Origin: Salinivirgaceae bacterium
Lineage (GTDB): Bacteria > Bacteroidota > Bacteroidia > Bacteroidales > SZUA-534
Length of the DNA stretch: 59,048 nucleotides
Direction: 5' to 3'
NCBI GenBank assembly: GCA_027858735.1
Contig: JAQICC010000310.1
Span: 1 to 59,048 of the forward strand
Shown: positions 41,923 to 43,603 of the stretch, piece by piece
Position numbering within the stretch: position 1 is the stretch's first letter
Layout: every line of letters begins with the position of its first letter
Made by a program: the position numbers and the translations under genes
The notes under the pieces: generated by a model
Databases searched by the model: none
The model's input: the letters and a program-made list of their open reading frames with translations, nothing else
Told to the model about the DNA's origin: nothing

Positions 41923-42555
41923 ATGAATAAAATTTACTTTCTAGGATTAATAATTGCAATAAGCTTATCAGCATGCAAGAAAGAAGTAGTTAAGATAGCT
42001 TGTGTTGGTGATAGTATTACTGAAGGACACGGCTTAGCTATACAAAGCAAAACAGGTTATCCGGTAGTTCTTGATCATATTTTAGGACCGAATTACACGG
42101 TTTTAAATTCTGGCAGAAGTGCTACCAACATGCAAAAGAAAGTTGATTTCCCCTATTGGATTTGTAAGGAATTTTCAAATACTTTTGCTTTTAAGCCCAA
42201 CATTATAGTTATAAAATTGGGAACTAACGATACCAAACCTTACAATTGGAATGCCGTTAATTATGAAAAGGATTATCAAGCTTTAATAGATACTTTTAAA
42301 ACCATTTCAACAAATCCGCTAATTTATTTATGCACACCTGCTCCTGTTTTTAAAACAGTTTGGGGCATTAACGATTCTACAGTAATAAATGGCGTTATTC
42401 CGGCCATTGAAAAATTGGCTAAACATAACCAACTTTCGGTAATCGACATTTACACCCTTATGCAAGATCAGGGAGCTAATTTCCCTGACAGCATTCATCC
42501 TAATGAGCAAGCAGTTGAAGTTATGGCTACAATTATTTCTAAAGCTATTAAATAA
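41923..42555 (+). CDS. SGNH/GDSL acetylesterase, lipoprotein
   Basis: Lipobox LSAC; CVGDSIT, GRSA, KLGTND, DSIHP. Confidence 0.88.
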   Translation: MNKIYFLGLIIAISLSACKKEVVKIACVGDSITEGHGLAIQSKTGYPVVLDHILGPNYTVLNSGRSATNMQKKVDFPYWICKEFSNTFAFKPNIIVIKLGTNDTKPYNWNAVNYEKDYQALIDTFKTISTNPLIYLCTPAPVFKTVWGINDSTVINGVIPAIEKLAKHNQLSVIDIYTLMQDQGANFPDSIHPNEQAVEVMATIISKAIK

Positions 42556-42700
42556 TGAACCGGCAAAAATTTATTTTGAGATGCTAGAGGGGTATAATGC
42601 CATTTAACGCATAGTATTTTTTGAGTTTAAAAAGGGTTAAATATTATTTTAAGGTGCTGAAACTTTGGTAGTATATGACATAAAAACATTACTTTTATAA

Positions 42701-42775
42701 AGGTGCAGAGCACCGATTATCTATATAGAAAATAGATATTATAATAGATATCAGGTGCGGAGCACTGTAATATTT
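42701..42775 (+). repeat. Left pair of REP-like hairpins flanking the transposase
   Basis: AGGTGC-AGA-GCACC-GATTATCTATATAGAAAA (42701-42732) and AGGTGC-GGA-GCACT-GTAATATTT (42753-42775); possible decayed third copy at 42651. Confidence 0.85.
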
Positions 42776-42791
42776 AACACAAAATAAACCA

Positions 42792-43434
42792 ATGGCAGAT
42801 ACATATGTGCAGGCGTATTTTCATCTTGTTTTTGCAGTTAAAAACAGGGATGCCTTAATACTAAAATCATGGAAAGGCGAATTAGAGAAATATATAACCG
42901 GTATTGTTCAAAACAATAATCAGAGACCTTTGCAAGGTGATAACGCTAGTAAATTACTCATCTTTTGTTCCATATCTTCGTTAAATATTTTTTAAAGTCC
43001 TCGAATACAAGAGTATGCTGCGGGTTTAAAAAATATTTTGCCTTAATCTGAAACAAAATATTTCGCCTTGCAAAGGTCTCAATCATAAACTAATTGCAGT
43101 TGGTTCAATGGCTGATCATATCCATATTTTTATTGGATATAATTTGAACCAGACAATCCCGGATTTAGTTGAAAACATCAAAACCTCAAGCAATCATTGG
43201 ATTAAAGAAAAAAAATTTACAAAATTTAGCTTTAGTTGGCAAAAAGGCTATGGTGCATTCACTCATTCTCATTCTCAAATTAACACAGTCGCTAAATATG
43301 TTTTAAGTCAGCATACACACCATCGTAAAAAAACATTCAGAGAAGAATATATGGAAATGCTAAATAAATTTGAAATAGCATATAAGAATGAATATGTATT
43401 CGACTTTTTTAATGATGTGAGCCATTTTGAATAA
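42792..43434 (+). pseudogene. tnpA: IS200/IS605-type Y1 (HUH) transposase, RAYT-like, disrupted by MITE insertion
   Basis: N-part MADTYVQAYFHLVFAVKNR...YITGIVQNNN; C-part HKLIAVGSMADHIH (HUH)...WQKGYGAF...KYVLSQ (catalytic Y-x3-Q). Deleting 42923-43085 (163 bp) gives one 480-nt ORF (159 aa). No tnpB follows. Confidence 0.92.
42923..43080. mobile_element. 158-bp non-autonomous MITE with 15-bp TIRs and 5-bp TSD
   Basis: TIR GAGACCTTTGCAAGG (42923-42937) / CCTTGCAAAGGTCTC (43066-43080); AATCA duplicated at 42918-42922 and 43081-43085; no transposase coding capacity; internal 14-bp IR at 42983-42996 / 43025-43038. Confidence 0.93.
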
Positions 43435-43503
43435 TATTACGGTGCTCTGCACCTTAATCAGGAGAATATGTTTTCTATAAATATTTCGGGTACTCTGTAC
43501 CCT
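43433..43503 (-). repeat. Right pair of REP-like hairpins (inverted relative to the left pair)
   Basis: AATATTAC-GGTGC-TCT-GCACCT (43433-43454) and TTTTCTATAAATATTTC-GGGTAC-TCT-GTACCCT (43471-43503), reverse complements of the left-hand units. Confidence 0.85.
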
Positions 43504-43603
43504 TTACGTGGAGTGCATTTAGTTCTTTTATTTTACTTCCGGGTCAAATAATTCAATCTAACGCAGTAGCTCAAAATAATATTTAAACAATAAACCTATT
43601 ATA

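Follow-up and report, generated by a model that had tools for sequence, protein, structure and literature searches.

A 158-bp MITE lies inside an IS200-type transposase gene in the window (the whole stretch of DNA that was analysed, 59,048 nucleotides), and the insertion is real and clean. The explanation that we consider very probable is that a non-autonomous IS5-type MITE inserted at codon 43/44 of tnpA in an IS200/IS605-type insertion sequence of about 690 bp. The features are as follows, with coordinates counted from the first letter of the window.

42657-43504, + strand: host element of IS200/IS605 type, delimited by hairpin pairs and about 690 bp long when the insert is not counted; ends good to a few bases, from one pairwise comparison.
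42702-42766, + strand: two left-end hairpins, GGTGCAGAGCACC (42702-42714) and GGTGCGGAGCACT (42754-42766), absent elsewhere in the genome.
42792-42917, + strand: 5' part of tnpA, codons 1-42, on Y1_Tnp positions 3-38; the read-through into the insert stops at 42995.
42918-42922, no strand: left copy of the target duplication (TSD), AATCA; the homologue has a single AAACA here.
42923-43080, no strand: 158-bp MITE with inverted ends (TIRs), TSD and an empty site; its interior is matched by a profile of foreign copies (E 4e-7).
42923-42940, + strand: left TIR, whose first 12 nt equal the ISNme1/BrickBuilt end.
42960-43061, no strand: inner fold-back arms (42960-42996 and 43025-43061), each 37 nt and 76% complementary, around the centre.
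42998-43023, + strand: central module TCCTCGAATACAAGAGTATGCTGCGG, in which conserved flanks without pairing enclose a small hairpin.
43063-43080, - strand: right TIR, forming an inverted-repeat pair with the left TIR.
43081-43085, no strand: right copy of the TSD, AATCA, read from the sequence.
43086-43434, + strand: 3' portion of tnpA, which contains the HUH motif (HIH, 43117-43125) and joins the reading frame of the 5' portion only after 163 bases are removed.
43441-43501, - strand: the two hairpins of the right end (43441-43453 and 43489-43501), in the opposite orientation to the left pair.

The boundaries of the insert were sharply defined. The word AATCA at 42918-42922 was repeated at 43081-43085, and the two copies directly abutted GAGACC... 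(from 42923) and ...GGTCTC (to 43080), respectively. The insert started with GAGACCTTTGCAAGG and ended with its reverse complement. The TIR arms of 18 nt (42923-42940 and 43063-43080) were 94% complementary (17/18), with the outer 15 nt perfect and 18/20 positions agreeing when the arms were extended by eye. These observations confirmed at 42923-43080 what the sequence-only reading had described, namely a 158-bp insert with perfect 15-nt TIRs (18/20 extended) and an exact 5-bp TSD. The exact end 11-mer occurred only five times in the 5.99 Mb of this genome, twice in the element itself, once alone in contig C327 and twice as an inverted pair in C58, so the ends of the element are not a product of chance. 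It was observed that the longest internal frame of the insert was 42 aa, with its start outside the insert. No tandem repeat was found in 42850-43150, and an Rfam search of 42500-43600 returned only five matches, all at chance level (E 2.2 or more). The sigma-70 promoter scan gave 5 sites against 6.9 expected, and two terminator-like sites corresponded to the hairpins of the IS200/IS605-type host element. Small size, lack of coding function, TIRs, TSD and an empty site together identified the insert as a MITE.

The gene around the insert was reported by ORF callers as two split frames, as had been noted before, at 42792-42995 (67 aa) and 43108-43434 (108 aa). In the Pfam Y1_Tnp profile, the first 42 residues fell on positions 3-38 and the part from 43081 on fell on positions 41-121, and the HUH motif was located downstream of the break. 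A protein search of 33 genomes of the same family revealed a homologue with 85% identity in G010, a genome of a different genus, where the ORF of 158 aa was intact (L165:1372-1848). The DNA alignment to this homologue was unbroken over the insertion point, and its only gap was the element plus one copy of the TSD; the empty site carried a single AAACA, compared with AATCA twice in the broken gene. When the 163 bases were removed in silico, the frame was open for 159 codons with no stop, and 140 residues were identical to the homologue. The restored gene gave a dN/dS of 0.108 and a dS of 0.54 in comparison with the homologue. Because the frame opened and matched the homologue after this removal, the insertion was the sole lesion, and the earlier claim that taking out the element and one TSD restores the gene was upheld. 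Since the host gene showed no other lesion, the insertion looks young relative to the decay of the gene and is probably recent.

The host gene had been called a REP-associated transposase in the sequence-only reading, and this assignment did not hold. The intact homologue passed the NCBIfam IS200/IS605 model (62 bits, cut-off 55) and failed REP_Tyr_transpos (24.6 bits, cut-off 80), its hairpins were not dispersed, and its position was not syntenic. The nearest solved structures to the host transposase were IS200/IS605 TnpA proteins. Exact GGTGCNGAGCACC hairpins occurred in this genome only beside tnpA, and in G010 and G015 only beside the gene or its fragments. Homology to the G010 copy was confined to 42657-42922 and 43081-43504, and the flanking genes differed. 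The unit of about 690 bp was 85-89% identical in the other genus, where it stood between unrelated genes (L165:1238-1928) and was thus not syntenic; fragments occurred elsewhere. On this comparison of sequences, the host appears to be a mobile unit of IS200 type of about 690 bp, with hairpin pairs inverted around its gene. It resembles the IS200 group of the IS200/IS605 family in its length of about 690 bp, its single Y1/HUH transposase and its hairpins at both ends, and differs in the inversion of the hairpin pairs around the gene. Inverted hairpin pairs around a gene are more typical of REP-flanked RAYT genes. The host shares with RAYT genes and their REP/REPIN sequences the Y1 transposase and the inverted flanking hairpins, whereas it fails the family cut-off, lacks dispersed hairpins, is non-syntenic and has fragments elsewhere. 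Among genomes of the same genus, the best copies of the unit were only about 46% identical at the protein level, compared with 85-89% across the two genera, and this difference points to a horizontal spread of the unit. Separately, three variant hairpins, GGTGCAGCGCACC, were observed within 140 bases near a contig end (G000:C287:34402-34538), and these may mark another IS200-type end or remnant.

The ends of the 158-bp element were of IS5 type. Table 2 of PMC4596501 assigns the end GAGACCTTTGCA to ISNme1 (IS5 family) and to some BrickBuilt copies of Porphyromonas gingivalis, and GAGACCATTGCA is given in the same paper as the end of ISPg1. Compared with these printed ends, the element matched ISNme1 at 12/12 positions and ISPg1 at 11/12. 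A passage of PMC3898611 places IS1106 in the IS5 family. The earlier suggestion that the end resembles those of IS1106-type elements of the IS5 family was thus supported by the identity of the 12-nt GAGACCTTTGCA with the tabulated ISNme1 end. An insertion sequence of 1.2 kb with the same ends as the element was found at L056:5527-6737, and its 325-aa product (L056:5691-6668) contained DUF772 (5e-27) and DDE_Tnp_1 (9e-31). Related IS5-type insertion sequences with such a transposase were present in G034 and in the sponge-associated gammaproteobacterial genome G035. In the latter, an IS5-type element (L186:1383-3482), the presumed partner, had a 17-nt stretch of its end in common with the MITEs of that genome and was interrupted by a 139-bp family member (2237-2375) with the duplication AGATA, which indicated that these MITEs have inserted into transposase genes on more than one occasion. 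The insertion sequence and a local MITE of G035 had only their ends and a short CTGCGTT motif in common.

Two described groups carry comparable ends. The ISNme1/IS1106-type elements of Neisseria, together with ATR, a MITE proposed to derive from them, have, as far as the published ends go, a 12-nt end GAGACCTTTGCA identical to that of the 158-bp element; the Neisseria elements obtained in our scan differ in phylum and have a GC-rich interior unrelated to that of the element. BrickBuilt/MITEPgRS elements of P. gingivalis are described as non-coding, with 12-nt ends that are identical (BrickBuilt_4) or almost so and a presumed IS5-family partner, and they occur in the same phylum. BrickBuilt differs in carrying a 23-nt minisatellite and in its reported irregular duplications of 2, 4 or 5 bases, whereas the 158-bp element has no tandem repeat and a clean 5-bp TSD.

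From these observations, a mechanism can be proposed. An IS5-group DDE transposase (DUF772 plus DDE_Tnp_1) would bind the GAGACCTTTGCA ends in trans, the target would be cut with a 5-base stagger, and joining of the element would leave the 5-bp duplication. The Y1 (HUH) transposase would be split ahead of its catalytic motifs, and the host element would thereby be killed. The proposal of the sequence-only reading that a DDE transposase acting in trans, rather than the disrupted HUH enzyme, had moved the element is supported by the IS5-type ends and by the DUF772 and DDE_Tnp_1 domains encoded by the same-ended insertion sequence. No IS5-group transposase was found in the 452-contig draft of this genome, which gave one 99-aa DUF772 fragment and a best protein match of E 0.004. 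None of the 12 DDE_Tnp_1 loci present here had paired ends of this type within 2.5 kb, and no IS5-group transposase with these ends was found in three other Bacteroidota genomes that contain relatives. The partner transposase may be unassembled in the 452-contig draft, which is 98.9% complete by markers. As the assembly contained no partner transposase, this MITE copy is most likely stranded now.

We further examined the distribution of the element. This genome contained only one full copy. The two C58 11-mers, 149 bp apart and inverted, bounded an AT-rich intergenic element of 151 bp (L214:121-271, G000:C58:22870-23020) that was delimited by AAGACCTTTGCA and TGCAAAGGTCTC and had a 4-of-5 flanking repeat. 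It was a diverged relative that shared the ends and subterminal bases with the 158-bp element but not the interior. Two end-like words of C327 spanning 2.9 kb were also considered as an element and were rejected because they had no extended inverted repeat. Among 32 other genomes of the same family, no full copy was detected, and the partial matches were only 22-58 nt long. The exact 22-nt core word had 0 matches in JGI metagenome contigs, and no plasmid or phage sequence was matched when the 158 bp were used as a BLAST query. Relatives with the 15-nt end were found in 3/400 other genomes of the same order (backwards-pattern controls, 0) and in two metagenome contigs, of 152 bp (duplication GTAGC) and 149 bp (4-of-5 duplication). 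The closest relatives were MITEs of 136 bp in G317, of the same order, which aligned over their whole length and one of which had the duplication ATTTT; G130 contained a copy of 222 bp with the duplication GATTC.

A scan of one genome per species, in which two end 11-mers were sought 115-145 bases apart, gave at least 120 loci. Among the matches listed were Gamma- and Betaproteobacteria, Neisseria, Desulfobacterota-type MAGs, Dehalococcoidia, one Bacteroidota MAG and others. From these loci, 138 elements of about 139-165 bp were extracted. An exact 5-bp duplication was present in 78/138 of the elements listed, with one mismatch in 21 more, compared with 0/138 in a control in which the right flank was shifted by 20 bases. 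The 5-bp duplication is therefore a signature of this end class, as measured on MITEs, and the 158-bp element conforms to it; the two full insertion sequences examined showed no clean duplication. In the exact cases listed, the first base of the duplication was A in 47/78 and the last base was T in 42/78. Thirty-four elements, including the 158-bp element, could be aligned lengthwise (alignment A1). The interior identity of the 158-bp element to foreign copies was low (62-67%). A profile of the interior was built from the 33 foreign rows of A1, with the ends removed and the 158-bp element left out. The best match of this profile in the present genome was 42962-43060 (E 4e-7), with 23 matches below E 0.01, and the best match in a reversed-genome control had E 3.6. 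Because its interior matched the profile of foreign copies, the 158-bp element is assigned, on sequence similarity, to a cross-phylum family and not to a private one. No description of this MITE family was found in the literature on such ends and on IS5-family MITEs that we covered; the sequence supplements of PMC11602168, which presents a census of 1.4 million candidate MITEs, fall outside that literature and may list the family.

The element was predicted to fold as a long hairpin on either strand, with energies of -29.1 kcal/mol as DNA (z -6.7) and -50.6 kcal/mol as RNA (z -7.6). In A1, 97.2% of cells were paired, compared with 82.0% in shuffles and at most 49.9% with slid partners, and changes on both sides were found in 134 cells compared with 41.3 in shuffles. 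The rows of A1 had been picked with a pattern requiring the central hairpin (56/139 matched), which biases helix 4, and the scan itself dictated the ends; hence the fair evidence comes from helices 2 and 3, in which all eight pairs showed double changes. In the comparison of the 158-bp element with G317, the central stem was wholly different in sequence and still formed a stem between the same flanks. Within the family, compensatory changes have preserved both the long fold-back and the central hairpin as shared traits.

The sequence-only reading had also proposed that the insert represents an active, undescribed MITE family, and that its precise loss via the 5-bp repeats serves as a reversible switch for a REP-associated transposase. 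The perfect duplication, the near-perfect ends, the otherwise intact host gene, the frame restored on removing 163 bases and the strong fold-back are all in keeping with this proposal. In addition, a contig of 151 letters from run X3, an aquatic metagenome of a different study, was identical to 42955-43073 (119 bases, 0 differences) and then continued into unlike sequence, so a near-identical copy, or part of one, exists in another context, as the proposal would have it. As a side observation, about 17 further runs (marine, salt-marsh and sediment) contained 5-7% of the sampled words. Against the proposal, the host gene is of IS200/IS605 type and not REP-associated, a single full copy and no partner transposase were found in this genome, and the family itself is widespread. 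The Logan contigs of runs X1 and X2 showed only the inserted form, with no excised joint, a result to be read with the fact that contigs drop rare variants; no RNA run was among those that contained the stretch, and the one RNA run of the same study gave no contig for it. With a class of at least 120 loci in species-representative genomes, and in this genome a single full copy, a diverged relative and no IS5-type partner, the label of an undescribed active family was not sustained, and these counts do not support current activity of the element. A reversible switch through precise loss is unlikely, and the proposal as a whole is very improbable.

MITEs are generally thought to arise by internal deletion of insertion sequences. 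The insert could accordingly be an in-situ remnant, in which tnpA was entered by a full-length IS5-type insertion sequence whose transposase gene was subsequently removed by an internal deletion, without any MITE having transposed; the lack of a second identical copy in this genome agrees with such a history. However, MITEs of other genomes have a homologous interior that corresponds in length and layout, and where an insertion sequence and a MITE could be compared within one genome they share only their ends and a short subterminal motif, which indicates that the 158 bp are not the leftover of a transposase gene. We therefore hold an in-situ remnant to be highly improbable.

Support for the junctions came from independent contigs of X1 and X2, two samples of one study, which cover 42600-43207 and 42600-43176, respectively, and cross both junctions with 0 differences; X1 is possibly the source of the assembly and X2 a second sample. 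Hence, the insertion is not an assembly artefact: the in silico joining of 158 bp into the gene by assembly or binning, for which one could cite a metagenome-type draft of 452 contigs with many repeats at contig ends, is scarcely credible, because contigs by another assembler from two runs match over both junctions and a chimeric join would not produce a 5-bp target duplication.

The interior profile also matched other repeat families of this genome. A repeat family of about 180 bp, with different inverted ends, was represented by 40 BLAST rows, of which many lay at contig ends (L028:1441-1555, that is G000:C173:16025-16139, and about 38 other contigs). Its centre had 23/26 bases in common with the centre of the 158-bp element, and the family was matched by the foreign interior profile with E ~5e-4. 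At least four more families (C38/C257, C139/C135, C324/C220 and C369) carried CTGCGTTA ... TCATTTAC-loop-GTAAACTCC ... GCCTTG, for which the loci L209, L210, L211, L212 and L215 (contigs C38, C139, C324, C369 and C257 of G000) were used. The body of these families matched the proteobacterial MITE copies, and their ends did not match GAGACCTTTGCA. An Rfam search of seven other repeat copies gave only two matches (E 0.53 and 0.6) and no family. We tentatively consider an apparently unnamed cross-phylum superfamily of fold-back MITEs of 140-180 bp (Bacteroidota and Gamma-, Beta- and Deltaproteobacteria), in which the body CTGCGTTA ... TCATTTAC-loop-GTAAACTCC ... GCCTTG is better conserved than the transposase-binding ends; this body would be diverged in the present element and represented by at least five families with other ends in this genome. 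Such a superfamily is possible, although we think it somewhat doubtful.

For annotation, the two ORF fragments in the window can be read as one IS200-type transposase gene plus a MITE, and the case as it stands is a textbook example of one mobile element disabling another. The combination of GAGACCTTTGCA-type ends and a 5-bp duplication characterises a MITE class that extends from Neisseria to Bacteroidota; some members of this class have a conserved interior in common, with compensated hairpins. The conserved-body superfamily is what merits further attention. If it is true, selection would act on the body as a unit, including the compensated central hairpin and the unpaired flanks that are conserved. 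This body might provide a docking site for a protein, either of the host or accessory, or might be an RNA, and it would have swapped its ends to use different transposases. If the interior is functional, it would provide a handle on the persistence of MITEs and on their movement between hosts and transposases.
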